The notes beneath the pieces were generated by a model. That model saw only the letters and a list, made by a program, of their open reading frames with translations. It was not told the DNA's origin and ran no database searches. A stretch of 64,000 bases of DNA, from positions 69,661 to 133,660 of the forward strand of contig CAWBMO010000007.1 in assembly GCA_963789965.1 (NCBI GenBank). Direction: 5' to 3'. Source of the DNA: an uncultured Acidobacteriota bacterium (lineage in GTDB: Bacteria > Acidobacteriota > Vicinamibacteria > Vicinamibacterales > CAVVIG01). The position numbers and the translations under genes are program-made. Positions 1,432-64,000 of this stretch are shown piece after piece (within the stretch, counting starts at the first letter, position 1; the number at the start of each line of letters is the position of its first letter).

Positions 1432-1990
1432 GCGCCAGCGCCGGATTGCCCTCGGTGCGGTCCTTGTGGTGCTGGCGGTTGTGCTGTACCGTGCAGTGAC
1501 GTCCCTGGGAGCGCCGTCAGGGACGTCCACCGCCTCCAATTCATCGTCTAACGGAAGAGCCAGGACGGCGAGATCAGCCCGTGGCCCGGCGGCTCAGGCG
1601 ACCGCGCCCGACGTGCATCTTCGCGCGCTCGACGACGAACGGCCGATACCAATCTCTGGGGAACGCAATCTGTTCCGGTTCAAACCGGCAGCGCCCCCCC
1701 CGGCGCCGCCGCGGACGACGCCGCCGCCGCCGGTCGTGCGGAATGTCCCGAGCGTGCCCGCTGGGCCAGCGCCGCCGCCACCGATTCCGCTCAAGTTCAT
1801 CGGAATTGTCGAGGCGCCGCAGTCAAAACCGATCGCGGCGCTCGTCGATTCGACCGGGCGTTCGTTTCACGGCCGGGAGGGCGACATCGTGGCGGGGCAG
1901 TATCGCATCGTGAAGATCGGTGTGGAGTCCATTGAGATGACCTATCTGGACGGCCGCGGGCGGCAGACGATTCGCCTCACCGGATCGTGA
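1421..1990 (+). CDS. PilP-like protein (membrane anchor, Pro-rich linker, C-terminal beta domain)
   Basis: 189 aa. Hydrophobic anchor (IALGAVLVVLAVVLY), PPPAPPRTTPPPP linker, C-terminal FIGIVE..ALVD..YRIVKIG..SIEM pattern as in PilP. Immediately precedes the secretin. Confidence 0.5.
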   Translation: MATERQRRIALGAVLVVLAVVLYRAVTSLGAPSGTSTASNSSSNGRARTARSARGPAAQATAPDVHLRALDDERPIPISGERNLFRFKPAAPPPAPPRTTPPPPVVRNVPSVPAGPAPPPPIPLKFIGIVEAPQSKPIAALVDSTGRSFHGREGDIVAGQYRIVKIGVESIEMTYLDGRGRQTIRLTGS

Positions 1991-2047
1991 AATTGCAGAT
2001 TGCAGATTGCGGATTGCAGATTGCTGATTCATTGCGGATGGCAGATT
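1991..2047. repeat. Tandem heptamer array (ATTGCAG)n, family C, single arm
   Basis: About 8 direct units between the pilP-like stop and the pilQ ATG. The 22 nt TCGTGAAATTGCAGATTGCAGA are identical to the start of the element at 41713. Confidence 0.85.
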
Positions 2048-4587: not shown

Positions 4588-4597
4588 CGGTGCCTCG

Positions 4598-5209
4598 ATG
4601 GTCCCTGGTCCCTGGTCCTTCGTGCTTGGTCCGTCCCTGGTCCTTAGTCGTCCCTGGGCCTTGGCGCCTGGTGCACACCACGGACCGAGGACCAAGGACG
4701 GACTAAGGACTAAGAACGGACCAAGGACCAAGGCCCAAGGACTAAGGACCGACGACGGATACACGTTCATAGAGCTGCTCGTCGTCGCCACGATCATTCT
4801 GATTCTGGCATCGGCCATCATGCCGCTCGTGCGCGTCACGTCGACCCGCCAGCGCGAGGCCGAGCTGCGGCGCGATCTGCGGGAAATCCGCACGGCCATC
4901 GACAAGTTCAAGGACGCCGCCGACACCATGCAGATCAGCCCGCTCGACCTGAAGCCGGACGGCATGGGCTATCCGCCCGATCTCGAGACGCTTGTCGAAG
5001 GGGTGACCGCGGCGAACGATCAGGCCGCGCGCAAGCTCAAGTTTCTGCGGCGTGTCCCGGTGGATCCCATGACGCACGACACCGAGTGGGGGATGCGTTC
5101 GTACCAGGACGATCCGGACGCCACACGGTGGGGCGGACAGAATGTGTTCGACGTCTACACGAAGTTCGAAGGAACGGCGCTGGACGGGACCAAATACAAA
5201 GACTGGTGA
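4598..5209 (+). CDS. GspG-like pseudopilin / type IV pilin-like protein
   Basis: Prepilin motif G|YTFIELLVV with Glu at +5. GspG-like body (RRVPVDPMT..W). Start is uncertain: the in-frame candidates are ATG 4598 or TTG 4664, both inside hairpin repeat A1. Confidence 0.75.
   Translation: MVPGPWSFVLGPSLVLSRPWALAPGAHHGPRTKDGLRTKNGPRTKAQGLRTDDGYTFIELLVVATIILILASAIMPLVRVTSTRQREAELRRDLREIRTAIDKFKDAADTMQISPLDLKPDGMGYPPDLETLVEGVTAANDQAARKLKFLRRVPVDPMTHDTEWGMRSYQDDPDATRWGGQNVFDVYTKFEGTALDGTKYKDW
4600..4750. repeat. Tandem-heptamer palindrome, family A (GGTCCYT)n ... (ARGGACC)n
   Basis: ~75-nt left arm of GGTCCCT/GGTCCTT units, apex near 4675, right arm of AAGGACC/TAAGGAC units. Lies between pilQ and the first pseudopilin. 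Confidence 0.9.
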
Positions 5210-5388
5210 ATTGGGTAATTGGGTAATCTGGTAATTGGGTAATTGATTGGTGAATTGAATGCGGTGGATTGGCTGATGGTGGATAGGCAGACTGGATTGA
5301 AACGGCGACTGCGCACGACTCGTGCCCTTCGTGTCTTCAATCGTCTCTTCAATTATCCGATTACCCGATTACCCGATTACCCAATTGA
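5208..5388. repeat. Tandem-octamer palindrome, family B (GGGTAATT)n ... (CGATTACC)n with ~88-nt loop
   Basis: Left arm 5208-5262, right arm 5351-5387. The candidate start codons of the second pseudopilin lie in the loop. Confidence 0.85.
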
Positions 5389-5776
5389 CCGTTCCCCGTC
5401 CGGATTCACGATCATCGAGCTCCTCGTTGTCCTCGCCCTCATCTCCATCCTGGCTACCATGGGGATGGCGCAGTACCGGCAGGGCGTCGTGCACGCGCGC
5501 GAGGCGGTGTTGAAGACGGATTTGTTCGATCTGCGGGACGCGATCGATCAGTACTACGCCGACAAAGGGCAGTATCCCGGGACGCTCGACTCGCTCGTCA
5601 CTGACGGATATATCCGGAAGGTCCCCGTCGACCCCTTCACGAACGCCGCCGACACGTGGCAGACGGTTCCGTCAGACCCCGATCCCAATAATCCCACCGC
5701 CACTCCTGGAATCTACGACGTGAAGAGCGGGTCCGATGGGACCGCCATCGACGGCAGCAAATACGCGGAGTGGTAA
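5276..5776 (+). CDS. GspG-like pseudopilin (T2SS major pseudopilin family)
   Basis: G|FTIIELLVVLALISILA with Glu+5. DLRDAIDQYYADKGQYPGTLDSLV..YIRKVPVDPF is a classic GspG pattern. Start is uncertain (ATG 5276, GTG 5279 or TTG 5297, all in the loop of repeat B1). Confidence 0.8.
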   Translation: MVDRQTGLKRRLRTTRALRVFNRLFNYPITRLPDYPIDRSPSGFTIIELLVVLALISILATMGMAQYRQGVVHAREAVLKTDLFDLRDAIDQYYADKGQYPGTLDSLVTDGYIRKVPVDPFTNAADTWQTVPSDPDPNNPTATPGIYDVKSGSDGTAIDGSKYAEW

Positions 5777-8017: not shown

Positions 8018-8030
8018 GGGTTAAGACGTT

Positions 8031-8126
8031 GAATCTGGTCATCTGGTTATCTGGTCATCTAGTCAATGATTTGGGTCACTCCTGAAATCAATGACCAGAT
8101 AACCAGATGACTAGATGACCAAATTC
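8031..8126. repeat. Tandem-octamer palindrome, family D (CTGGTCAT)n ... (ATGACCAG)n
   Basis: GAATCTGGTCATCTGGTTATCTGGTCATCTAGTCAATGATTT pairs with AAATCAATGACCAGATAACCAGATGACTAGATGACCAAATTC. Lies between convergent genes. The stop of the minus-strand gene is in the right foot. Confidence 0.9.
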
Positions 8127-10145: not shown

Positions 10146-10196
10146 GCTGAGGGGACCTCACGAGCAAGTCGCGAATCTTACTACAGTCTATAGTTT

Positions 10197-10283
10197 TTGG
10201 TCGTTGGTCATTAGTCGTTGGTCGTTGGTTGGTCACCAGCCCTTGACGAACGTGTAACGACTAATGACTAATGACCAACGACC
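10197..10283. repeat. Tandem-heptamer palindrome, family E (TTGGTCGT/TTGGTCAT)n ... (ACGACYAA)n
   Basis: Lies in the murQ/xerD divergent spacer. The right arm ends one nt before the xerD GTG. Confidence 0.85.
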
Positions 10284-11159
10284 GTGATTGACGCCTTTCT
10301 GGACCACCTGCGCGTCGAGCGGCGGCTGGCCGCGCACACCCTCGAAAGTTACGGGCGGGACCTGGCTGCGCTCGCAGAATACGCAGCGGGGCTCGGCGTG
10401 GCGCCAGACGCGCTCGACCGGCGGGCGCTCGAACGATTCGTCAGGCGGCAGATCAGCCGGGGCCTCTCACCGCGCTCCGTGGCGCGATCGGTCGCCGCGA
10501 TTCGTGGATATTACCGGTTCCTCGTCCTCGACCGCCGTCTGCCGAGCAGTCCCGCAGACGACCTGCAGCCGCCGCGCGCGTGGCCGGCGCTGCCAAAATT
10601 CCTGTCGCTCGAGGAGGTCGATGCGCTTATTGCACAGCCGGATGTCGCGACACCACTCGGCCTCCGCGATCGCGCCATGATCGAGCTGCTGTACGCGACG
10701 GGGATGCGGGTGTCCGAGCTCGTCGGCGTCCGGACCGCGGATCTCCATCTTCGCGAGCGCTATCTGACCTGCGTCGGCAAGGGCAACAAAGAGCGGCTGG
10801 TTCCGACCGGCGATCAGGCGATCACGTGGATCGAGCGCTACCAGAAGACCGCGCGCCCGAGGCTCCTCAAAGGGCGCGCGTCAACGCGGCTGTTCTTGAA
10901 CGTCCGGGGCAAGCCCATGAGCCGCGTCGGCTTCTGGAAGCTTCTGAAACGGTACGGCCACCGCGCCAACCTGCCGCGCTCGCTCAGCCCGCATGTGGTC
11001 CGACATTCGTTTGCGACGCATCTGCTCGAGCGCGGCGCCGATCTGCGGGCGATCCAGATGATGCTAGGCCACACGGACCTGTCGACGACGCAAATCTACA
11101 CGCACGTGCTCGAAGCGCGTCTGCGTACCGTCTACGATCGATTTCATCCGCGGCCGTGA
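10284..11159 (+). CDS. xerD: Site-specific tyrosine recombinase XerD (XerC/XerD family)
   Basis: 291 aa. N-terminal [23 protein letters not shown]. Catalytic ARG..HxxR..Y region ([37 protein letters not shown]). XerC versus XerD cannot be resolved by eye. Confidence 0.85.
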
Positions 11160-19282: not shown

Positions 19283-19460
19283 GTTTTCAGTTCGGCGTAG
19301 CCGTCAAGTCCTTGGTCCTTTGTCCCTGCGTTCTTGGTCCGTCCGTGGCCCGTGGTCCTTGGTGCGCATGCCACGATGGACCACGAACGAGGGACCCAGG
19401 ACGGACCATGGACCAAGCACCATGGACCAGGGACTGGCGTACGACACGGAACCGAAAAAC
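19283..19460. repeat. Tandem-heptamer palindrome, family A, with extended outer stem
   Basis: Core is 19308-19435 (GTCCTTGGTCC... / ...GGACCAGGGAC). The flanks GTTTTCAGTTCGGCGTAGCCGTCAA and TGGCGTACGACACGGAACCGAAAAAC also pair. Confidence 0.8.
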
Positions 19461-19915: not shown

Positions 19916-19984
19916 CGTGATCGCCTCGCCGGCGCCACTGGCGGCTGTCCAGGATTGGCGCGCCGGTGTCGAATGTTGACGCGC

Positions 19985-20147
19985 ACTAGTGTCGCGTCTC
20001 CGAAGTTCGTTGTCGCACCGAGGGCGGCGAGGCGCCCGGCTGGCCAGGCGCGAGGAGCTCGCATATCGAGAATATGCGAGCGACGAGCAACGCCGCCAGC
20101 CGGGATGCATCGCCGGCCGAATGCAAACGAACTTCGGAGACGCGACA

Positions 20148-20152
<5 letters not shown>
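19985..20152. repeat. MITE-like element: perfect 27-bp terminal inverted repeats around a 114-bp core
   Basis: ACTAGTGTCGCGTCTCCGAAGTTCGTT (19985-20011) is the exact reverse complement of 20126-20152. There is an inner 10-bp palindrome GCTCGCATAT..ATATGCGAGC (20057-20081). The right TIR covers the parB stop. Confidence 0.8.
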
Positions 20153-21717: not shown

Positions 21718-21762
21718 CAGTGGGGGCGGACGGGGAATTGTAACAGGAAAGAGTACGGCGAA

Positions 21763-21882
21763 GAATCGGGTAATCGAGCCATCGCGTAATTGGGTAATTG
21801 CCCCGATGTCGGAAACTGCCCAGCTACCCTGGGACCCGACTACCCAATTGCCCGATGACCCGATGACCCGATGACTCGATTC
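21763..21882. repeat. Tandem-octamer palindrome, family B (imperfect)
   Basis: GAATCGGGTAATCGAGCC..GTAATTGGGTAATTG pairs with CAATTGCCCGATGACCCGATGACCCGATGACTCGATTC. Lies between the nuclease gene and parA. Confidence 0.7.
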
Positions 21883-21886
21883 ATCG

Positions 21887-30907: not shown

Positions 30908-31355
30908 ATGGGAAGCGTCAACAAAGTGATTCTGGTCGGCAATCTCGGGCGCGATGCGGAACTTCGTTACACACCCGGCGGCGCCGCGGTCGCGACGATC
31001 AACATGGCGACGACCGAGGTCTGGAACGACAAGGCCGGTCAGCGTCAGGAAAAAACCGAGTGGCACCGCGTCGTGCTCTGGGGCAAGTCGGCTGAGTCGC
31101 TCACGGAATATCTGACCAAGGGGAAGCAGATCTACGTCGAAGGCCGCCTGCAGACGCGCCAGTGGGACGACAAAGACGGCAACAAACGGTACACGACCGA
31201 GATCCGGGGCGATCGAGATCGTGCTGCTCGGCGGCGGGGGCGGGGGCCGCGGGGCTTCAGCCGATCGCGGCGGAGACATGACGGGCGGGCACGCACCAGC
31301 CCCTTCGGCTCCTGAGTCGTCAGAGCCGTTGACTGACGACGACATTCCTTTCTGA
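30908..31355 (+). pseudogene. ssb: Single-stranded DNA-binding protein, one +1 frameshift in a GGGG run (~31205-31211)
   Basis: OB fold ([36 protein letters not shown]). The canonical Gly-rich tail ending DDDIPF* is in the +1 frame (stop at 31353-31355). Confidence 0.85.
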
Positions 31356-31435
31356 ATCGGGTAATTGGATAATCGGGTAATTGAGTAATCGGAAATTCAA
31401 TTACTCGATTACCCAATTACTCGATTACCCAATTC
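31354..31435. repeat. Tandem-octamer palindrome, family B
   Basis: The left arm is identical over 36 nt to the left arm at 57468. The loop is AAATTC. The right arm contains the cupin gene stop. Lies between the convergent ssb and cupin genes. Confidence 0.9.
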
Positions 31436-31794
31436 ACCGTCTTATCCTCCCGCCCGTATCTGTCCTCGAGTCGCACCACGTCATGAATCTCCGGCGTGGA
31501 CACCTCGAAGATGTCGCTGTCCGTGATCGCCGTCATCCGGTGAATCGTCTTCGGCGTGATGTGCACGCGCTCGCCGGGGTGCATTTCACGCTTGACGAGC
31601 TCCTTGCCCTCCTGAATTTCGAACAGCAGCAGGCCCGAGTGCAGGTAGATCGTCTCGTCCTTCAGGTTGTGATACTGGAGGCTGAGTGCGTGGCCGGCGT
31701 TGACGTGGATCAGTTTGCCGACGTATCGATCCGTTTTCGCCCAGTGCAGCTCGTAGCCCCACGGCTTCTCGACGCGCGTGACATCACCGTTCAA
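31417..31794 (-). CDS. Cupin domain protein
   Basis: 125 aa. KPWGYE..G..LSLQYH..K.ET.Y cupin motif 1, and P..IHR motif 2. The last residues and the stop lie in repeat B3. Confidence 0.7.
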   Translation of the reverse strand: MNGDVTRVEKPWGYELHWAKTDRYVGKLIHVNAGHALSLQYHNLKDETIYLHSGLLLFEIQEGKELVKREMHPGERVHITPKTIHRMTAITDSDIFEVSTPEIHDVVRLEDRYGREDKTVNWVIE

Positions 31795-33961: not shown

Positions 33962-34045
33962 AAAACCAGACACAACGATCAACGCAGAGACCGCTGAGCA
34001 CGCAGAGAATGCATGGCTCTGCGTGTTCTGCGTTGAATGTCGTGT

Positions 34046-34453
34046 CTACACTTTCTCCCCTCTCAGCAAGTCCGATGCGACCCAGATCGCGTTCCTCCCA
34101 TCGTCTCGCATCTGGCGCGCCACCGCCAGCAGGTCCTGCGACTCCGGAAGCGCGGCCAGCTTGATCAGCATCGGGAGATTGACGCCGGTAATGACCTCGA
34201 TGCGGTCCTTTTCGAGAAAGGTCATGCCCAGATTCGACGGTGTGCCGCCAAACATGTCGGTCAGGAGCAGCACACCCTCTTCGCCGCGCACGCGCTCGAT
34301 GGCCTGGACGATCTCCTCCCGGGCATCATTGACATCGTCGTGCCAGCCGATCGAGACGGCCGTGAACTGCGGCAGATCGCCGACGATCATCTCGGCGGCA
34401 TTGACGAGCTCGATCGCGAGCTGGCCGTGTGTGACGACAACGACGCCAATCAC
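34046..34453 (-). CDS. PTS EIIA component, mannose/fructose family
   Basis: 135 aa. IGVVVVTHGQLA..LTDMFGGTPSN pattern of EIIA(Man). GTG start at 34453. Confidence 0.8.
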   Translation of the reverse strand: MIGVVVVTHGQLAIELVNAAEMIVGDLPQFTAVSIGWHDDVNDAREEIVQAIERVRGEEGVLLLTDMFGGTPSNLGMTFLEKDRIEVITGVNLPMLIKLAALPESQDLLAVARQMRDDGRNAIWVASDLLRGEKV

Positions 34454-39355: not shown

Positions 39356-39363
39356 TTAATAAG

Positions 39364-39470
39364 AAAGCACTACCACAAAGGACACGGAAAGAAACGGAGG
39401 GCACGGAAAACAATTAATAGGTTGTTGCCGTGACCTCGGTTTGTCGCCGTGACCTCCGTGGTAGAGCTTT
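39364..39470. repeat. F-type palindrome (AAAGCACTACCAC-AAAGGACACGG.. / ..CCGTGACCTCC-GTGGTAGAGCTTT)
   Basis: ~49-nt arms, loop TTAATAGG. Arm differences are mostly A/G transitions. Lies between the LptC/A-like gene and lptB. Confidence 0.85.
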
Positions 39471-39519
39471 CGTCGTTCGTGGTAGCGCTTTTTGTCGGAC
39501 GCTGCGGCGCTTTCGATAT

Positions 39520-41709: not shown

Positions 41710-41714
41710 GGTTC

Positions 41715-41793
41715 GTGAAATTGCAGATTGCAGAATTCAGATTGTAGATTCATTGCAGATTCAATCTGAATTCTGCAATCTGAAATCTGCAAT
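41715..41793. repeat. Tandem-heptamer palindrome, family C (ATTGCAG)n ... (CTGCAAT)n
   Basis: 25-bp stem ATTGCAGATTGCAGAATTCAGATTG / CAATCTGAATTCTGCAATCTG..CAAT, 17-nt loop. The right arm encodes the RecJ C-terminus and stop. Confidence 0.9.
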
Positions 41794-43488
41794 AGTCAGC
41801 TCTGTGTATGTCTCCCCGTTGTATTGATTCTGCTCCAACGAAAAGGCCACGTCGAGCGCGGCCCGGTGCTCCGTCAGGTACTCGTGCCGCTCGGCCGCGC
41901 GCCAGGCCACCGCCCTGAAGACGCGTCCGTCCTGCTTCAACGCCATCTTGAGATGCCGCTCCTTCAGCAGGCGCGGACCATCGACAATCTCCACGTGCCG
42001 CGCCGCAAAAACCGGACGCGGGTTTCCGGCGCCAAACGGCGCCAGCGAGGCAACGCCTGATGCCACGCCGGCGGTAATGCCGCGAAACGTCAGGTCGCCG
42101 TCGATGCGCAACCGCGGCATCAAATCGTCTGGACCCAGCGTCTCATCCGCCACCGCGTTGACCGCCAGGCGGAACTCCCGGACGCGGCCCGCCTCGAGGG
42201 TGAGACCCGCCGCCTGCCGGTGACCGCCGAACCGCCCGAGCAGGTGCGCGCATCGCTCGAGCGCGCCCAGCATGTCAAAGCCCGAAATGCTCCGGCACGA
42301 CCCCTGGGCGACGCCGTCTTCAACCGACAGCACAATGGCCGGCCGGTGAAACGCGTCCACGAGCTTCGAGGCCACAATGCCAATGACGCCGCGGTGCCAG
42401 CCCTCGCCGGCCACGACAAGGATGGAGCGGGCGCCGATGTCCGGATCGGTCTGGACGAGCTTTTTCGCCGCGGCGACGATCCCCGCTTCTTCCTCCTGCC
42501 GCCGGACGTTTTCTCCGTCGAGCTGCACCGCCAGGGCCCTCACCTCCTCTGCCATCGCCTCGTCGGTGGCGAGGAGGAGGCGGGTGGCGAGGTCCGGCGT
42601 GCTCATCCGTCCAGCCGCATTGATGCGCGGAGCCACCATGAACGAGATGTTGAAGCTGTCCATGGTCTTGCCCGTCAGACCGGCCACATCCAGCAGGGCG
42701 CGCAGCCCGACTTTGTGCGGGCCGCGCGAGAGCAATTCGAGGCCGATCTTCGCGATGACACGATTCTCGCCGACGAGCGGCACGACGTCGGCCAGCGTGC
42801 CGATCGCGGCGATCTTCACGAAACCGGGCAGCCAGCTTTCGCGGCCGGCCTGCGTGCAGAGCGCCTGCACCAGTTTCAACGCCACGCCGACGCCCGCCAG
42901 GAACTTGTCCGGATACTGGCAGTCGTGCCGCTTGGGGTTGATCACGGCAAACGCCGGCGGCAGCGTGGTGTCCGGCTCGTGGTGATCCGTGATGATCAGG
43001 TCCACACCGAGCTCGCGCGCGCGACGGGCGGCCTCGGCGCCGCGAATGCCGCAGTCGACTGACACGATGAGCGAGACGCCGTCGGCGTGCAGACGTTCGA
43101 TCGCGACAGGCTGGAGGCCGTAGCCGTCGCGCAGGCGCTCCGGGATGAAGTGGATCACGTCAGCGCCGAGCAGCTCGAGGGCGCGGCGCAAGATGACCGT
43201 CGACGTGACGCCATCCACATCGTAGTCGCCGTGGATGGCGATCCGTTCCCTGTTTGCGATAGCGCCCATGATCCGGTCGACAGCCACGCGCATGTCGGCG
43301 AGCCGCATGGGATCGTGCAGGTGTTCGAGCGTCGGGTTCAGAAAGCGAAACGCCAGATCCGGATCGCCCAGTCCGCGCTGGCAAAGAAGCCGCGCCACCG
43401 GGGCCTCGATGCCGAGCGCCGACGCCAGCCGCGCGGCGGCTTCCTCGTCGCAATCTTGCGATAGCCAGATCGGTCCGACGACGGGCAT
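41761..43488 (-). CDS. recJ: Single-stranded-DNA-specific exonuclease RecJ
   Basis: 575 aa. DHH motifs (IAIHGDYDVDGVTS, DLIITDHH) and a DHHA1 domain. The last ~10 codons lie in repeat C2. Confidence 0.9.
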   Translation of the reverse strand: MPVVGPIWLSQDCDEEAAARLASALGIEAPVARLLCQRGLGDPDLAFRFLNPTLEHLHDPMRLADMRVAVDRIMGAIANRERIAIHGDYDVDGVTSTVILRRALELLGADVIHFIPERLRDGYGLQPVAIERLHADGVSLIVSVDCGIRGAEAARRARELGVDLIITDHHEPDTTLPPAFAVINPKRHDCQYPDKFLAGVGVALKLVQALCTQAGRESWLPGFVKIAAIGTLADVVPLVGENRVIAKIGLELLSRGPHKVGLRALLDVAGLTGKTMDSFNISFMVAPRINAAGRMSTPDLATRLLLATDEAMAEEVRALAVQLDGENVRRQEEEAGIVAAAKKLVQTDPDIGARSILVVAGEGWHRGVIGIVASKLVDAFHRPAIVLSVEDGVAQGSCRSISGFDMLGALERCAHLLGRFGGHRQAAGLTLEAGRVREFRLAVNAVADETLGPDDLMPRLRIDGDLTFRGITAGVASGVASLAPFGAGNPRPVFAARHVEIVDGPRLLKERHLKMALKQDGRVFRAVAWRAAERHEYLTEHRAALDVAFSLEQNQYNGETYTELTIADFRLQNSD

Positions 43489-43515
43489 TAGAATCGGCCC
43501 ATCCTTTGCGTGTCA

Positions 43516-44030
43516 AAAGCGCTACTCACCGTAGTCCTCAACACAAAGGACACGAAGGAGCACACGGAGTACGATCTCGACCCAACGGCAGAGTCACGAC
43601 CGTGATCTAGTGCCGCGCTCGAGGTTCATTCGCAAATTGGGGCCGGAATGCTCGAGAGCGCGGTGTGGGCATGCATGTCTCACGAACTCGCCACCAACGG
43701 CCTCCACTTCGAGATCGACCAGGTTTATCTAGTCACGCTCGATGAGCAGTTCCGATTGCCGGTTCGGTTACCGCGTCGATCTTCTTGTCGAAGGAGTGGC
43801 CGGTCGTCGAGATCAAAGCGCGTGGAGAACATCCTTCCCGTTCATGAGGCGCAGGTACTCTCGTATCTCAAGTTGAGTGGGATTCGGGTCGGCTTGCTCA
43901 TTAACTTCAACGTCGCTCACCTGCGTCAGGGAATCAGACGCCGAATCTGTACGGTCCTGAGACAGAGTGATCCGTGTTCTCCGTTTGCATGAATTGTCCT
44001 TGCGTTGAAACCCACCGTGGCAGTGCTTCT
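43516..44030. repeat. F-type palindrome whose ~390-bp loop carries the GxxExxY gene
   Basis: The left arm is 43516-43576 (AAAGCGCTAC..CAACACAAAGGACACGAAGGAGCACACGGAG). The right arm is 43967-44030 (GTGATCCGTGTTCTCCGTTTGC..GTCCTTGCGTTG..GGCAGTGCTTCT). The arms are reverse-complementary in register. Confidence 0.7.
43590..43992 (+). pseudogene. GxxExxY-family (PD-(D/E)XK-like) protein gene, disrupted by several +1 frameshifts, nested in the loop of an F-type hairpin
   Basis: AALEVHSQIGAGMLESA.., then out-of-frame FGYRVDLLVEGVAG and VVEIKA, then VENILPVHEAQVLSYLKLSGIRVGLLINFNV. Shifts are near 43608, 43762, 43802 and 43821. The last three sum to +3, so ORF 43648..43992 stays open. Confidence 0.6.
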
Positions 44031-48611: not shown

Positions 48612-48615
48612 AGCT

Positions 48616-48791
48616 AGTCCTTGGTCCTTTGGTCTTGGTCCTTCGTCCGTCCTTGGTCTTTGGTCCTTCGTCCGTCCTTGATCATTCGTCCGTCCCTGGT
48701 CATTCGTGCTCGGTCCGTGCCAAGCGCCAAGGCCCAAGGACAACCAAGGACTAAGGACGGACCAAGAACCAAGGACCAAGAACCAAGGACC
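48616..48791. repeat. Tandem-heptamer palindrome, family A (largest copy)
   Basis: ~100-nt left arm with internal GGTCCTTCGTCCGTCCTTG duplications, ~70-nt right arm (CCAAGGAC/TAAGGAC units). Fills the guaA-dnaE spacer. Confidence 0.9.
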
Positions 48792-48795
48792 ATCG

Positions 48796-50373
48796 TCATT
48801 CCCACTCTATCGTGGACGGCGGCTTCGAACTGATGTCATACACAACCCGGTTGATCCCGCGGACTTCGTTGACGATGCGTGAGGAGATGCGAGCAAGCAG
48901 ATCGTGCGGCAGCCGCGCCCAGTCGGCGGTCATGCCATCACGACTTTCGACGGCTCGAATCGCGACGGTGTACTCATAGGTCCGCTCGTCGCCCATCACG
49001 CCGACGCTCTGCACCGGCAGCAGCACCGCGAAGCTTTGCCAGAGACGGGTATACCAGCCCTCCCGCCGCACCTCTTCCGTCACCACCGCATCGGCGCGGC
49101 GCAACAGGTTCAGTCGATCGGGCGTGACCTCGCCCAGGATCCGTACCGCCAGGCCGGGTCCGGGAAACGGCTGCCGGACAACGAACTCCTCCTCGAGCCC
49201 GAGCTTGCGTCCGACCTCGCGCACTTCATCTTTGAACAGCTCACGCAGCGGCTCGACGAGTTTCATCCGCATGCGTTCGGGAAGGCCGCCGACGTTGTGA
49301 TGGCTCTTGATCAGGGAGGACTGCCCCACGATCGCGACCGATTCGATCACGTCCGGATAGAGCGTGCCCTGGGCGAGAAAATCGACCTGACCGAGCTTCG
49401 CCGCCTCGGCATCGAAGACATCGATGAATGTCCCGCCGATGATTTTGCGCTTCCGTTCGGGATCGACCACTCCCGCCAGGCGATCGAGAAACAGCGATGA
49501 CGCGTCGACGAACACCAGCGGCAGCTTGAGCCGCTCGTAGCGTTTGCGGATCTGCGCCGCCTCGTCCAGGCGAAGGACGCCGTTATCCACGAAGATGCAC
49601 GTCAGCTTGTCGCCGACGGCACGATGAATGATGAGCGCGGCGACTGTTGAATCGACCCCGCCGCTCAGGGCGCAGACCACGCGGCCGGCGCCGACCTGCG
49701 CGCGAATCTTCGCGGTAGCCTCTTCGACAAACGACGCCATGGTCCAGTCGCCGGTGCAACCGCAGATGCCGTACGCAAAGTTTCGCAGAATATCGAGGCC
49801 GCGTTCGGTGTGCGCCACTTCAGGATGAAAGAGCAGCGCATACAGGCCGCGATCGGCGTTGGCCATCGCCGCGACCGGCGCGTTCGCACTGGTCGCGACG
49901 ACGTCGAATCCGGCGGGCGCCGCAGCCACGAAGTCGCCGTGACTGGCCCATACGCGAATCTCGTCCGGGATGTCGGTAAACAGGACGGCAGGCCCTGAAG
50001 GGCCTGCCCTACCGACGCCTCCAGCTGCGACGGGCACCCTGATCGTGACTGTCGCGTGGCCGAACTCGCGCTGCGGTGCGGGCGCCACCCGCCCCCCGAG
50101 CGTGTGTGCCATCAACTGCATGCCGTAGCAGATACCGAGCACGGGCGTGCCCATGTCGAACACCGCCGGATCGCAGCGGGGCGCGCCGTCATCGGATACG
50201 CTTTTTGGTCCGCCCGACAAGATCACGCCGACCGGCGCGCGACTGCGGATCTTGTCCGCCGATGTGTCGGGCGGCCAGATCTCGGAGTACACCGAAAGCT
50301 CGCGAAGGCGTCGGGCGATCAGTTGTGTGTATTGCGACCCGAAATCCAGAACGATGATCGTCTGATGACTCAC
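48796..50373 (-). CDS. guaA: GMP synthase (glutamine-hydrolysing)
   Basis: GTG 50373 gives [21 protein letters not shown]. GATase domain (GICYGMQ), ATP-PPase motif (SGGVDSTV), C-terminal PPSTIEWE. Confidence 0.9.
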
Positions 50374-56617: not shown

Positions 56618-57457
56618 TCACAACCCGGTGCCATCGCGGGCGGGCGGATCGATCGGAACGGCGTGAGGGGAGGTGTCCTGGCGGGGGCGGTCGCCTCGGC
56701 GCAGACGGCTGAAGGCCAGGCCGACGAACGCGGAGACGAGATACGAGTACGCCAGCACGATGAGCACGACGCGTGGATGCGTCGCAATAAGGGCGATGCC
56801 GGCTGCGAGCAGGATGACCACCGTATACGACCGGCGGCTCTGCAGGTCGATGCTCTTGAAGCTGCGGAACCGGATTGTGCTCACCATCAACGCGGCAGGG
56901 ATGAGCACCATCGCCAGCGCCGGCAGAGCCGCCCGATAGTCGGCCAGACCATCGGGAAAGGCGAAGACCGTCGCGGCCGGTATCCCCGCCGCCGCCGGGC
57001 TCGGCATGCCGACGAAGTACCGTTTGTCACCGCCCATGCTGCTCTGAATATTGAAGCGCGCCAGCCGCATCGCCGCCGCCGTGAGGAACAGAAACCCGGC
57101 GAGCCATCCCAGGCGGCCGAGAGGCTGGAGTCCCCAAGAGAACGACAGAATGGCGGGCGCGATACCGAACGAGATCACGTCGGCAAGCGAGTCGAATTCG
57201 ACGCCGAAATCGCTCGCCGAGCCGGTCATCCGCGCGATGCGGCCGTCGAGCATGTCGAGCACGATGGCAAATCCGATAAACGGCGCGGCCGTCTCGAACT
57301 CGCCGCGCATCGCGAAGACGATGCACGAGTACCCGCAGAACATGTTGCCCAGCGTGAACAGCGTGGGCAGGATGTAGACACCCCGCCGGAACCGTCGCCG
57401 AGGCCGGTCGGCCGCGCGCCGCAGGAATCGCAACCGTCCCGCCTGGTGAGTCAGCAC
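56618..57457 (-). CDS. pssA: CDP-diacylglycerol--serine O-phosphatidyltransferase
   Basis: 279 aa. CDP-alcohol phosphotransferase motif (DMLDGRIARMTG..FGVEFDSLADVISFG). GTG start. Confidence 0.85.
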   Translation of the reverse strand: MLTHQAGRLRFLRRAADRPRRRFRRGVYILPTLFTLGNMFCGYSCIVFAMRGEFETAAPFIGFAIVLDMLDGRIARMTGSASDFGVEFDSLADVISFGIAPAILSFSWGLQPLGRLGWLAGFLFLTAAAMRLARFNIQSSMGGDKRYFVGMPSPAAAGIPAATVFAFPDGLADYRAALPALAMVLIPAALMVSTIRFRSFKSIDLQSRRSYTVVILLAAGIALIATHPRVVLIVLAYSYLVSAFVGLAFSRLRRGDRPRQDTSPHAVPIDPPARDGTGL

Positions 57458-57467
57458 AATGACACCT

Positions 57468-57543
57468 GAATCGGGTAATTGGATAATCGGGTAATTGAGT
57501 AATTGCGATTACCCAATTACCCAATTACCCGATTACCCAATGC
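57468..57543. repeat. Tandem-octamer palindrome, family B
   Basis: The left arm GAATCGGGTAATTGGATAATCGGGTAATTGAGTAAT is identical to 31354-31389. The right arm contains the psd stop. Lies inside the psd-pssA operon. Confidence 0.9.
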
Positions 57544-58185
57544 CCCTGTCTGTGAGTGTAGCACCGCGATGACGGTTTCGCCGCCGCGCACCATGTCGCC
57601 GACTGCAACAGTAATCGTGGCATCAAGCGGCACGAACACATCCATCCGCGAGCCGAATTTCATGATGCCGAAACGGTCACCGGCGCGCACGTCTGTACCG
57701 GTTGCCACGCGACAGACAACGCGCCGGGCCAGCATCCCGACGATTTGACGGGCCACGATCGTCTGACCGCCGTGATCGATCCAGATCTCACTCCGCTCAT
57801 TGGTCGTACCTGCATCGTGCCGGTACGCCGGCAGAAACCGGCCGGGCTTGAACGTCACCCGCGTGACACGACCGGAAGCCGGAATGCGATTGACGTGCAC
57901 GTCCATGGGCGACAGAAAGATACTGACCTGCTGCCACGATCCGGGCGGGGACGATTCTGCGGGGGCCAGGCCGGCCACTAGCACGCGGCCATCCGCCGGC
58001 GAGAGCACCGCCTCCTCATCTGACGGCGACAGTCGATCCGGATCGCGGAAGAAAAAGAGGAAGAAGCCCGCGAGAAGAAGGAACGGCAACGCCCCCAGCC
58101 AGGCGCCAGCGACAACCCACGCGAGCGCGAGGGCAAGCGCGCCGCCGATGAACGGCAACGCGGCGGGATCGATGTGAATGGCCAT
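57517..58185 (-). CDS. psd: Phosphatidylserine decarboxylase-related proenzyme
   Basis: 222 aa. N-terminal TM helices. FLSPMDVHVNR and the self-cleavage region FGSRMD. The stop codon lies in repeat B4. Confidence 0.8.
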   Translation of the reverse strand: MAIHIDPAALPFIGGALALALAWVVAGAWLGALPFLLLAGFFLFFFRDPDRLSPSDEEAVLSPADGRVLVAGLAPAESSPPGSWQQVSIFLSPMDVHVNRIPASGRVTRVTFKPGRFLPAYRHDAGTTNERSEIWIDHGGQTIVARQIVGMLARRVVCRVATGTDVRAGDRFGIMKFGSRMDVFVPLDATITVAVGDMVRGGETVIAVLHSQTGALGNRVIG

Positions 58186-58198
58186 CGATCACTATCTT

Positions 58199-58274
58199 AA
58201 GAGGTTCGAGAGGTTTCGAGAGATTCGAAAGGTTCGAGAGGTTCTAGAACCCTTAGAACCTCTCGAACCTCTCG
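58199..58274. repeat. Tandem-nonamer palindrome, family G (GAGAGGTTC)n ... (GAACCTCTC)n
   Basis: Centred on GGTTCTAGAACC (58241-58252). Lies between the DUF465 gene and psd. Confidence 0.85.
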
Positions 58275-58281
58275 CCGCCCG

Positions 58282-59054: not shown

Positions 59055-59061
59055 TAACCAG

Positions 59062-59150
59062 TCAACACAAAGGACACCAAGGACACAAAGGTAAAACACC
59101 TTTGAGTATTTCCTTAGTCTCTTTTGTGTCCATGGTGTCCATTGTGTTGA
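59062..59150. repeat. F-type palindrome (TCAACACAAAGGACACCAAGGACACAAAGG / rc)
   Basis: ~30-bp stem. Lies between tsaB and rimI. The tsaB stop is in the loop/right arm. Confidence 0.85.
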
Positions 59151-59878
59151 GCGGTCTTCCGTTCCCGTTCGACTTCGGCGTCAGGCCTCCGCACGTACAA
59201 GGGTTGCACCGCCGCTGGATCGATCGTGTCCCCACGCTCGGCGCGCGCCAGCGCGATGCGGCCGATGGCACCGGCAAGCAGGGGCGTCTGTGGCAGCCGC
59301 GTCCAGCCGGGTGACGCGCCCCTGGAAATGGTATCGATGGTGTCCGCATGCAGTATCGCGCCGTCACCGACGAACAGCACGCGGGCGTCGCGGATGTGGC
59401 TCCTCCACCGCGTCAGCGTCGCAGCCGGCTTGCCAACGCTCGGTCCTTCCACTTCGACCAAACGCTCCGGAGAAAACGCCGCGGCATCAGTGATTTTGTA
59501 CAGCGCCGTGAACACATCCTGGCGACGGGCATCGATCCACGCGGCGACGAACGTTCCGGGCGGGCCGCCACTGCTCTGCGCCAGCGCCTCGAGGGCCGAA
59601 ACCGCCACGACTCGCCGTCCTGTGGTGAGCGCGAGCCCCTGGATCGTCGCGATACCGATCCGCAGGCCGGTGAACGATCCGGGGCCGGACGCGACCGCGA
59701 ACACATCGATCCCGCTCACGGATAATCCGTGCGCTCCGGCCAGCCGAACGAGCTCGTCTGGCAGTCGCTCGGCGTGAGAGCGCGCGGCATCGCCGCGGCG
59801 CTCCTCGACAACGTGATGTTGGTCGACGAGCGCCACACTCCCGTCGCGCGTCGTCGTATCAAGCGCCAGCACATGCAT
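59114..59878 (-). CDS. tsaB: tRNA t6A biosynthesis protein TsaB
   Basis: 254 aa. LALDTTT..SVAL and GPGSFTGLRIG motifs. The C-terminal ~12 codons and the stop lie in repeat F3. Confidence 0.85.
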   Translation of the reverse strand: MHVLALDTTTRDGSVALVDQHHVVEERRGDAARSHAERLPDELVRLAGAHGLSVSGIDVFAVASGPGSFTGLRIGIATIQGLALTTGRRVVAVSALEALAQSSGGPPGTFVAAWIDARRQDVFTALYKITDAAAFSPERLVEVEGPSVGKPAATLTRWRSHIRDARVLFVGDGAILHADTIDTISRGASPGWTRLPQTPLLAGAIGRIALARAERGDTIDPAAVQPLYVRRPDAEVERERKTAQHNGHHGHKRD

Positions 59879-62604: not shown

Positions 62605-64000
62605 GGCGCCGCGTGTTTTTCACCACAAAGGACACTAAGGACACAAAGGCCAGAACCGGTTCGTTCCTCTGTGTCCTTTGTGTCCTTTGTGTTCCTGCCT
62701 GCCTTGAACGGCCCACTCTTAATCCGAACGTCCTCGTCGTCGCGATGCCGAGCGGACCCAATAGTCTCGACCCTCGGGTCGGACTCGACGATGCGTCGCA
62801 GAAGATCCATCAGTTGATCTTCGACAATCTGTTCGAGCTCGACGACAAGATGCGTGTGAGGCCGAAGCTCGCCGAAACACTCGACCACCCGACGCCCACG
62901 ACCTACGTCGTCACACTCAAGCACGGGGTTCGTTTTCAAGACGGGCACGAGCTGACATCGGCTGATGTCGTCTATACGTTCCGGAGCTTCTTGGATCCCG
63001 ATTTCGTGTCCGGACGTAAGGGCGGGTACCGCGAGCTTCATTCCGTTGACACGATCGACCGGTACACCGTGGTCTTTACTCTCGACAGACCCTTCACGTC
63101 TTTCCCGATTAATCTCGTCATGCCCATCGTGCCCGACGGCGCTGGTGCCACGCTCTCGAGACGTCCCATGGGCACGGGACCGTACCGGTTCGTTCGCTAT
63201 GCGGTCGACGATCGCATCGAACTTGAGCCTTTCAACGAGTACTTCGGCGGCCGCCCGCGCAATGACGGGCTGATCATAAAGGTCGTGCCCGACGACATCA
63301 TGCGCGGGCTCGAGTTGCGGAAGGGGACGACGGACCTGGTCATCAACGACCTGACGCCGGACATCGTCTTCCAGCTCGAAAAGAGCGACCGGCTGCAGCT
63401 GGTCGAAGCGCCGGGTGTCGATTACCAGTATCTCGGACTGAACCTGCAAGACCCTGTACTAAAGGATGTCAGAGTCCGCCAGGCCCTCGCGTACGCAATC
63501 GACACGCACGCGATCATCGAATATCTGCGACGCGGGCTCGCGACGCCGGCGACAGGGCTTATGCCCCGTCAGTCCTGGGCGATTGCTCCCGATGTACGCG
63601 CGTACCCGTTCGATCCGGATCGTGCAAGAGCGCTTCTCGACGAGGCAGGCTACCGCGATCCGGATGGCGACGGTCCAGCGCCCCGCCTGCTCCTGAGCTT
63701 GAAAATCTCCAGCGCTCAGGAATTCAACCGGCTGCAGGCGTCAGTCATACAGCAACACCTGCGTGCCGTCGGCATCGATCTCGACGTGCGCACCTACGAG
63801 TTCGCGACGCTGTTTTCGGACGTACTGAAGGGGAACTTTCAGATATACAGCCTGCAGTGGACGGCCGGCTCGCTCGCCGATCCCGATATGCTCCGCCGCG
63901 TCTTTCATTCGAAACAGGTGCCGCCCGAAGGGTTCAACCGCGGTCACTTCAGCGATCCACGAGTGGATGCCCTGCTCGACGAAGCCGCCTCCTCGACCGA
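62601..64000 (+). CDS. ABC transporter substrate-binding protein, family 5 (peptide/nickel type), 3' end outside window
   Basis: The frame is open from ATG 62601 (overlaps the mutS stop, ATGA) to the window edge, so it is absent from the ORF track. LDPRVGLDDASQ..IFDNLFELD, VTLKHGVRFQDGHELTSADVVYTF, GTGPYRF. Codons 8-34 are repeat F4. Confidence 0.75.
   Translation, partial: MRRRVFFTTKDTKDTKARTGSFLCVLCVLCVPACLERPTLNPNVLVVAMPSGPNSLDPRVGLDDASQKIHQLIFDNLFELDDKMRVRPKLAETLDHPTPTTYVVTLKHGVRFQDGHELTSADVVYTFRSFLDPDFVSGRKGGYRELHSVDTIDRYTVVFTLDRPFTSFPINLVMPIVPDGAGATLSRRPMGTGPYRFVRYAVDDRIELEPFNEYFGGRPRNDGLIIKVVPDDIMRGLELRKGTTDLVINDLTPDIVFQLEKSDRLQLVEAPGVDYQYLGLNLQDPVLKDVRVRQALAYAIDTHAIIEYLRRGLATPATGLMPRQSWAIAPDVRAYPFDPDRARALLDEAGYRDPDGDGPAPRLLLSLKISSAQEFNRLQASVIQQHLRAVGIDLDVRTYEFATLFSDVLKGNFQIYSLQWTAGSLADPDMLRRVFHSKQVPPEGFNRGHFSDPRVDALLDEAASST
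62621..62695. repeat. F-type palindrome inside the 5' end of the substrate-binding protein gene
   Basis: CACCACAAAGGACACTAAGGACACAAAGG - 17-nt loop - CTCTGTGTCCTTTGTGTCCTTTGTGTTCC. Confidence 0.85.

Follow-up and report, generated by a model that had tools for sequence, protein, structure and literature searches.

The hairpin at 57468-57543 and its twin at 31354-31434 are probably (at a probability of about 0.7) ORF-less members of a dispersed inverted-repeat family, whose long relatives carry a PF05635 gene, and which has been copied, inherited vertically and altered by slippage of its short units. Judging from sequence comparison, copies have persisted vertically at a site for long periods, are conserved above the level of silent sites, gain and lose whole units, and are occasionally absent. 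At the density observed, such hairpins must have consequences for operon transcripts and for genome stability in a lineage that is among the most abundant in soil.

Hairpins and unit families

The window (the whole 64-kb stretch of DNA that was analysed) is densely coding, with a G+C content of ~64%. A comparison of 80 psd loci assigns the window to the Vicinamibacterales (Acidobacteriota; Acidobacteria subdivision 6), with the nearest species representative at 85% identity. Tandem Repeats Finder, an inverted-repeat scan and folding identify at least 16 intergenic hairpins, in which each arm is a tandem array of 7-9 nt units and the other arm is complementary to it. All of them lie in spacers, and roughly one window spacer in three contains a long perfect-stem hairpin; this high copy number and extragenic position are what is asked of REP/REPIN elements. 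The automated hairpin detector is conservative, recovering 8 of the ~16 window hairpins, and the genome-wide copy number is an extrapolation from the window and the metagenome loci.

The window hairpins sort into about eight unit families (A-H), which are listed in Table 1 with their copies and the genes that adjoin the B hairpins. An Rfam search of the window (E <= 1) gave no family match and no rRNA. Sub-threshold Rfam matches to plant and animal miRNA hairpin models were rejected as matches to generic stems.

Table 1. Unit families, repeat copies and adjoining genes, in window coordinates
Feature	Position	Strand	Units, arms and feet	Context and remarks
Family A			ATTGCAG	
Family B			AATYGGGT (other arm ACCCRATT)	
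Family C			ATCTGGTC	
Family D			TTGGTCG	
Family E			GGTCCTT	
Family F			ACACAAAGG	
Family G			AGAGGTTCG	
Family H			ACGCAGAG	GC-richer relative of the F unit
B hairpin, focal copy	57468-57543		left arm 57468-57503 (AATYGGGT units), 4-nt loop, right arm 57508-57543 (ATTACCCR units)	between psd and pssA
B hairpin, twin copy	31354-31434		left arm 31354-31389, equal to 57468-57503	between ssb (+) and a cupin gene (-)
B element	5205-5392		arms separated by a ~100-nt central segment	
B hairpin, diverged copy	21762-21884		starts GAATCGGGTAATCGAG	
A array	1985-2047	+	ATTGCRG x8, foot TCGTGAA	direct array only
A hairpin	41713-41793		22-nt foot the same as 1985-2006	
F hairpin	59057-59155		units ACACAAAGG	between rimI and tsaB
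F hairpin	62621-62694			directly after the mutS stop codon
F-like hairpin	39363-39471		feet AAAGCACTACCAC ... GTGGTAGAGCTTT	z = -6.6
Partial F-type left half	43516-43564	+	AAAGCGCTAC ... CAACACAAAGGACAC	no convincing inverted partner
G hairpin	58197-58276		units AGAGGTTCG	between psd and a DUF465 gene
H hairpin	33966-34049		units ACGCAGAG	
E hairpin	4595-4755		units GGTCCTT / AAGGACC	
E hairpin	19300-19440			
E hairpin	48612-48797			longest of the window
C hairpin	8030-8126		units ATCTGGTC	between convergent genes
D hairpin	10195-10288		units TTGGTCG / TTAGTCR	between divergent genes
pssA-like (CDP-alcohol phosphatidyltransferase)	56618-57457	-		GTG start 10 nt from the hairpin foot
psd (phosphatidylserine decarboxylase)	57517-58185	-		frame ends at TAA within the hairpin right arm
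ssb	30908-31355	+		split over two frames; conserved DDDIPF* end adjoins the hairpin

A separate structure at 19984-20152 is a 169-nt GC-rich imperfect hairpin of about -125 kcal/mol as RNA, with ends ACTAGTGTCGCG. It is not of the tandem-unit type, and it partially overlaps a predicted ORF.

Shared feet and folding

The window contains exactly two copies of the 36-mer GAATCGGGTAATTGGATAATCGGGTAATTGAGTAAT, both on the plus strand (31354-31389 and 57468-57503), and zero shuffles matched it, even with three mismatches permitted. The 36-nt identity reported for these two places in the initial annotation is thus borne out, as is the divergence described past the shared stretch, where the loops and right arms do differ. 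These 36 nt are mostly a repeated 8-nt unit, and the informative part of the sequence is the order of the unit variants (AATCGGGT, AATTGGAT, AATCGGGT, AATTGAGT), not its raw length. Among the matches listed, the same next 9 nt follow in only ~2-3 of the 114 other metagenome copies that have the first 27 nt.

As DNA, 57464-57548 folds strongly on its two strands (z = -8.7 and -10.9), as does 31351-31438 (z = -7.1 and -7.0), and the inverted-repeat scan and folding recover one long stem formed from terminal inverted repeats (z = -7 to -11). The 22-mer TCGTGAAATTGCAGATTGCAGA is likewise common to two sites, as had been claimed, but one of these was misplaced by a nucleotide, at 1984-2005 instead of 1985-2006 (the other copy is at 41713-41734). 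The description of this pair as hairpins holds for the 41713 copy, with z = -6.3 for 41710-41797, but not for the array at 1985-2047, since 1983-2052 forms no hairpin as DNA (z = +0.7) and its units all run head to tail, with no inverted arm. Direct-only arrays of this kind are also found at L028:10638-10669, L038:10635-10666 and L085:12625-12660, where other genomes have full hairpins, as they do at the window array. They may be half-elements left after the deletion of one arm, or precursors.

A motif search located the F-type foot and array-start motifs at the places originally given for them. The array start CAMCACAAAGGACAC is present at 43539, 59063 and 62621, and at 39371 with one mismatch, with complementary arms at 59135(-) and 62680(-). 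The foot motif AAAGCRCTAC has three window occurrences (39364+, 39482- and 43516+) where 0.03 would be expected. The sequence at 39363-39471 is a further hairpin; the folding of 43505-43660 is not significant. Two of the three AAAGCRCTAC copies bracket the 39363-39471 hairpin, and all three lie just upstream of minus-strand gene starts, which leaves both a foot and a promoter or leader motif as possibilities.

Flanking genes

Within operons, the elements are found exactly between the stop codon and the next ribosome-binding site. The ssb stop codon, a TGA at 31353-31355, overlaps the hairpin foot. TAA occurs in all three frames within three units, so that a gene reading into the array is soon terminated. 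The ancestral stop codon of psd, TGA in the relative L084 and others, is TCA in the window, and six extra codons lead to the TAA in the arm (57517-57555).

The ssb frame from the ATG at 30908 stops at 31313-31315, and the conserved DDDIPF* end is in another frame, with the shift near a GGGG run at ~31195-31210. Homopolymer errors are typical of long-read assemblies, and the split is either such a sequencing error or a real frameshift.

Dispersal of the B family

A 27-nt piece of the foot, AATCGGGTAATTGGATAATCGGGTAAT, was used as the probe for dispersal. At least 120 soil-metagenome contigs contain it, and there are 116 distinct flanks among the 125 instances listed; viral contigs gave 0 matches. 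In 72% of the instances listed, the array begins exactly with the 27-mer, which is preceded by G (75%) and T (56%). Stacking of the copies gives a B consensus with a median length of 103 nt, four units per arm and a variable loop, which reads (CTG)AATCGGGT-AATTGGAT-AATCGGGT-AATCGGGT-AATTGATTGG, loop, CCAATCAATT-ACCCGATT-ACCARATT-ACCCGATT-ACCCGATT(C). The conserved inner stem (AATTGATTGG / CCAATCAATT) differs from the unit, and position-specific variants recur among the copies, with AATTGGAT in one arm and ACCARATT in the other, which marks the copies as a repeat family with a master sequence and not as independent slippage products. The metagenome set was chosen by the 27-mer, so that arm conservation within it is circular; only the comparison with the relative L085 (see below) is unbiased.

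The feet therefore extend past the repeat unit, and the number of contigs and flanks, the consensus beyond the unit, and the empty and occupied sites described below all uphold the original proposal that the hairpins form a dispersed family. The opposite reading is that each array arose at its own site, where a short seed expanded by slippage and was then duplicated through fold-back or template switching, with all similarity being convergent. This is strongly disfavoured and has very little probability, given the identical 27-mer with its specific variant order in 116 contexts, the conservation of the non-unit inner stems and of the preceding (C)TG, the conserved gene within the same arms at four or more loci, and the presence of different families in one spacer in different genomes. 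It would fit the pure tandem arms that change by whole units, the direct-only arrays (window 1985-2047, L028 and L038) and the differences in unit families between genomes.

A search for the target-site duplications that copying might have left returned none, as there is no excess of 2-8 nt direct repeats over permutation at any offset tested in 57 copies, with boundaries that are approximate and derived from folding. This result also bears on whether the hairpins are ordinary MITEs of an insertion sequence with a DDE transposase. Terminal inverted repeats, small size, intergenic position and the existence of long and short forms are all compatible with such elements, but in addition to the lack of a duplication, the product of the long form is a four-helix-bundle protein of 125-155 aa and not a transposase, and the arms are arrays of 7-9 nt units, not a unique terminal inverted repeat, making this origin highly improbable.

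Of 77 copies, 33 have a TGA stop codon across the foot, and in 23 of these the upstream frame is open. This pattern is only suggestive, because open frames are common in GC-rich DNA.

Age and conservation at orthologous sites

The two window B hairpins with the shared left arm both have counterparts at orthologous sites. At the pssA/psd site, one arm of the window copy matches that of L085 at 35 of 36 positions, with flanks at 77-84% nucleotide identity, and the other arm is ~78% identical, which is above the silent-site level. At the ssb/cupin site, the arm is also 35/36 identical between the window and L093, with the same junction (CCTTTCTGAATCGGG) and flanks at 84-89% nucleotide identity. 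The L085 locus was found through MutS, and the comparison is therefore unbiased; the L093 locus was found through the 27-mer, and that comparison is biased. For the window versus L085, identity at the fourfold-degenerate sites of pssA, psd and mutS is only 0.51-0.56, with saturation at 0.38, so that an arm identity of 35/36 is far from neutral; by the authors' own binomial arithmetic, P(>=35/36 at p = 0.55) is about 1e-8. The F left arm at rimI/tsaB is 38/38 identical to that of L081, where fourfold sites are 0.73 identical.

On the strength of these alignments, both window B copies are old and are not recent insertions. The initial annotation had taken identity over tens of nucleotides to indicate copying. 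The dispersal of the family supports this, but recent copying does not hold, since both copies are at orthologous sites in L085 and L093. Orthologous occupancy and conservation above silent sites indicate that the long identity reflects constraint on, or homogenisation of, an old family, and long identity between distant copies can have this meaning, rather than recent transposition, elsewhere. As to selection or gene conversion, the data are mixed. Conversion predicts that copies within a genome are more alike than orthologs, and the right arms of the window B copies differ from each other at 3 positions, versus 4 and 7 from their respective orthologs; the F copies are closest to their own orthologs.

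Occupancy varies among relatives, and the sites are thus not always occupied by co-diverging sequence. The pssA/psd spacer is empty (0-9 nt) in L084, in which MutS is 87% identical, and is only 8-40 nt long in most of the 80 relatives. It contains B-type arrays in L085, L028 and L038, of which the latter two are direct-only; L016 and L018 have F-type hairpins in this spacer. Upstream of psd, the window shares its G hairpin with L084 and L085, and the closest relative, L081/L082, lacks it. The search for empty sites that had been recommended was thus successful in L084 and L081/L082, at sites too diverged for exact junctions.

Orthologous copies also differ by whole units, in keeping with the local gain and loss of units after copying that had been envisaged. 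The right arm of the rimI/tsaB hairpin differs between the window and L081 by one 9-nt unit, the L081 ortholog of the post-mutS F hairpin is two units longer than that of the window, and several-unit (8-nt) differences are found among four near-identical contigs. These whole-unit differences point to slippage, and head-to-tail units with a copy number that varies between orthologs are a VNTR-like feature.

In one and the same spacer, F- and H-type hairpins have different units on both arms and nevertheless keep the pairing and the feet TCAACRCA...TGYGTTGA, so that both arms would have changed together. H-type and F-type versions of one spacer in different genomes are found at L084:9140-9205 and L085:9890-9960 versus window 59057-59155 and 33966-34049. 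The H units (ACGCAGAG) resemble a G-for-A version of the F units (ACACAAAGG).

It is possible, although less probable than not, that the hairpins are structural or regulatory elements selected by the host, such as RNase III sites, 3'-end stabilisers, terminators without a U-tract, or DNA sites recognised by a unit-reading protein; a mobile origin would be compatible with this. The conservation of orthologous arms far above silent sites, the retained pairing and feet of the F/H hairpins despite changes in both arms, and the position exactly between stop codon and ribosome-binding site favour it, and long orthologous conservation is no less compatible with a host-selected function than with a selfish element. 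Also in favour, for 9 of the 11 window hairpins whose transcribed strand is known, that strand gives the better fold. However, the 44 co-directional metagenome copies have no bias in the orientation of the 27-mer arm relative to transcription (23:21), nor is the sense strand the more stable one (22:21), and strand asymmetry at the RNA level was dropped as evidence. Moreover, the same spacer is empty in close relatives with intact genes, the units vary among families and genomes, which counts against a single sequence-reading protein, and the stems have no following T-run.

The long form and its four-helix-bundle gene

A search of the relatives' and metagenome loci detected inverted B arms 430-485 nt apart at three loci (L130, L152 and L188), each of which encloses an ORF of 107-135 aa. 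The enclosed ORF matches PF05635 (23S rRNA intervening-sequence protein) and TIGR02436 (four-helix-bundle protein) only, along with an uncharacterised protein in the PDB (entry 2RLD). B arms with a PF05635/TIGR02436 gene are also present in L206, L207, L208, L209-216 and L217-222. The long form is a 125-155 aa four-helix-bundle gene between the same arms as those of the short hairpins, and the two forms align at their left ends on a common foot, the B terminal repeats being shared by both. Gene-carrying forms occur at four or more loci (RidA/rhodanese, moeA/Zn-ribbon, x/MacB and M28/MFS), and B arms flank every four-helix-bundle gene whose context was retrieved. This arrangement suggests that the hairpins are ORF-less derivatives of an element resembling the intervening sequences (IVS) of 23S rRNA.

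The link between gene and hairpin is shown for the B family only, and an HMM search of the window and of 85 unselected relatives' loci detected no PF05635-like ORF. Across samples, each protein variant is found in one genomic context only, and there is thus no sign of recent movement of the long form. To our knowledge, no catalytic activity has been assigned to the four-helix-bundle family, and no transposase or other known mobility enzyme was found in association with the elements.

The protein family has 871 close metagenome relatives, which are mostly on very short contigs. Most contigs with a four-helix-bundle gene (P0121-P0240) measure only 0.5-2 kb, as would be the case if short-read assemblies broke at the flanking arrays. 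The repeats probably fragment such assemblies of this lineage in general, and the element density in short-read MAGs is probably underestimated. At the moeA/Zn-ribbon locus, the four-helix-bundle gene of L152:1035-1706 is split over two frames, and is intact in the orthologous L188, which suggests that the ORF decays in some lineages, as in the Coxiella IVS.

If the hairpins are indeed ORF-less relatives of this long form, they would stand to it as a MITE stands to its autonomous element, or as an IVS after loss of its ORF, that is, as deletion derivatives. The family would have spread by copying into short intergenic spacers without target-site duplication, with changes in units by replication slippage and absences by deletion, and unit families A and C-H may be parallel lineages of the same architecture. 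By analogy with the stems of rRNA IVS, a transcribed stem might serve as an RNase III substrate or as a 3'-end barrier. A more ambitious and rather doubtful extension would make a multimer of the four-helix-bundle protein (S23p / Avd-like) the maintenance or mobility factor that reads the 7-9 nt units. The hairpins would then be the non-autonomous majority of a class of mobile element for which the literature search gave no description, with a cognate gene for each unit family, and the rRNA IVS would be members that landed in rRNA.

Relationship to known repeat elements

Cyanobacterial STRRs are intergenic direct arrays of 7-9 nt tandem units, with several unit families and slippage. The TAACTGA repeats of the Beggiatoaceae are direct arrays oriented towards start codons (PMC4679880). 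The elements described here share with both the 7-9 nt intergenic tandem units, the multiple families and the change in copy number by slippage. However, those arrays are direct only, whereas here arrays of opposite polarity pair into a hairpin whose feet are defined.

The architecture is closer to that of the IVS, in which an S23p ORF lies between terminal inverted repeats, RNase III cuts the stem, and mobility has been proposed (PMC4990558). In the 23S rRNA IVS of Leptospira and Coxiella, as in the long form, a PF05635 ORF is located inside terminal inverted repeats that form one long stem (PMC4990558). ORF-less and decaying versions, a sequence more AT-rich than the host, a sporadic distribution and the lack of a known mobility enzyme are further points of similarity. 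Unlike IVS, which occupy helix 25 or 45 of 23S rRNA, the copies here lie between protein-coding genes; their arms consist of tandem 7-9 nt units, and ORF-less forms abound (at least 16 hairpins, counting all families, per 64 kb).

MITEs such as Correia, Nezha and MITEAba12 are also short, non-coding and intergenic, with terminal repeats common to a longer gene-carrying element. However, no target-site duplication was found here, the long form carries a gene that is no known transposase, and the terminal repeats are internally repetitive. In behaviour, the hairpins are most like REP/REPIN or MITE families, and in architecture they resemble rRNA IVS; yet no GTAG tag or RAYT, and no target-site duplication or transposase, was found with them, and their place is outside rRNA.

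A literature search of incomplete coverage returned no description of tandem-unit hairpins in Acidobacteria or Vicinamibacteria, or of IVS-protein genes with such arms. The connection of the hairpins to a PF05635 gene is new here, and suggests a type of selfish or domesticated element. It bears on the old question of the nature and mobility of IVS elements and S23p proteins, and the system offers many copies, long and short forms, insertion polymorphism and unit-level variation for work on binding, cleavage and mobility.

RAYT-like genes and REP elements

The metagenome B copies are in co-directional (44), convergent (18) and divergent (10) contexts. In contigs of at least 3 kb, the 27-mer arm is on the C-rich strand (negative GC skew) in 40 of 60 (p = 0.013), although these contigs are not independent. 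This polarity may be linked to replication, as a weak lead. Both window B copies also have the 27-mer arm on the strand with negative GC skew.

Such features raise the question of whether the hairpins are REP/REPIN-type elements that a tyrosine (HUH) transposase, RAYT or TIRYT, moves in the form of single-stranded hairpins. The hairpins are abundant and intergenic, form several families per genome, persist vertically, prefer the 3' side of genes, and lack a target-site duplication. The preference for co-directional and convergent over divergent spacers is also as in REP/REPIN elements, and transposition coupled to the replication fork would be expected to give an orientation bias such as the weak one observed (40:20). 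A separate group of RAYT-like TIRYTs belongs to the Acidobacteria (PMC3733652), and one RAYT-like gene was detected in this clade, at L050:17715-18186 (E = 2.5e-8 to an E. coli RAYT query sequence). It is the only one in the 2.1 Mb of loci searched, and none was found in the window or in the 120 contigs containing B copies. This gene is flanked, within L050:17655-18350, by two and three GC-rich GTAG-tagged palindromes (GTAGGGGCCGCCTTCAGGCGGCCC), not by tandem-unit arms. The search for a RAYT/TnpA(REP)-like mobiliser advised by the initial annotation thus leads to a gene among GTAG REPs, whereas the gene enclosed by B arms is always a four-helix-bundle gene and never a Y1 transposase. The tandem-unit hairpins are AT-rich rather than GC-rich and have no GTAG or CGTC tag, their feet reading (C)TGAATCGGGT, TCAACACAAAGG and TCGTGAAATTGCAG, and their single arms are not palindromes. 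Taken with the four-helix-bundle gene, these differences make movement by a RAYT or TIRYT improbable, and the reading as ORF-less relatives of the PF05635-carrying form is preferred.

The GTAG REPs with their RAYT-like gene are a separate family that coexists with the hairpins in this clade. Di Nocera et al. catalogued classical REPs of this GTAG kind (PMC3733652). In the window, matches to the GTAG-REP pattern are at chance level. In L084, L085 and L081, GTAG REPs adjoin tandem-unit hairpins and yet are distinct from them. Classical GC-rich GTAG REPs are located at L084:6683-6748 and L081:4605-4640. In L081, a REP lies immediately upstream of the post-mutS F hairpin and is absent from the window, which constitutes a REP insertion polymorphism.
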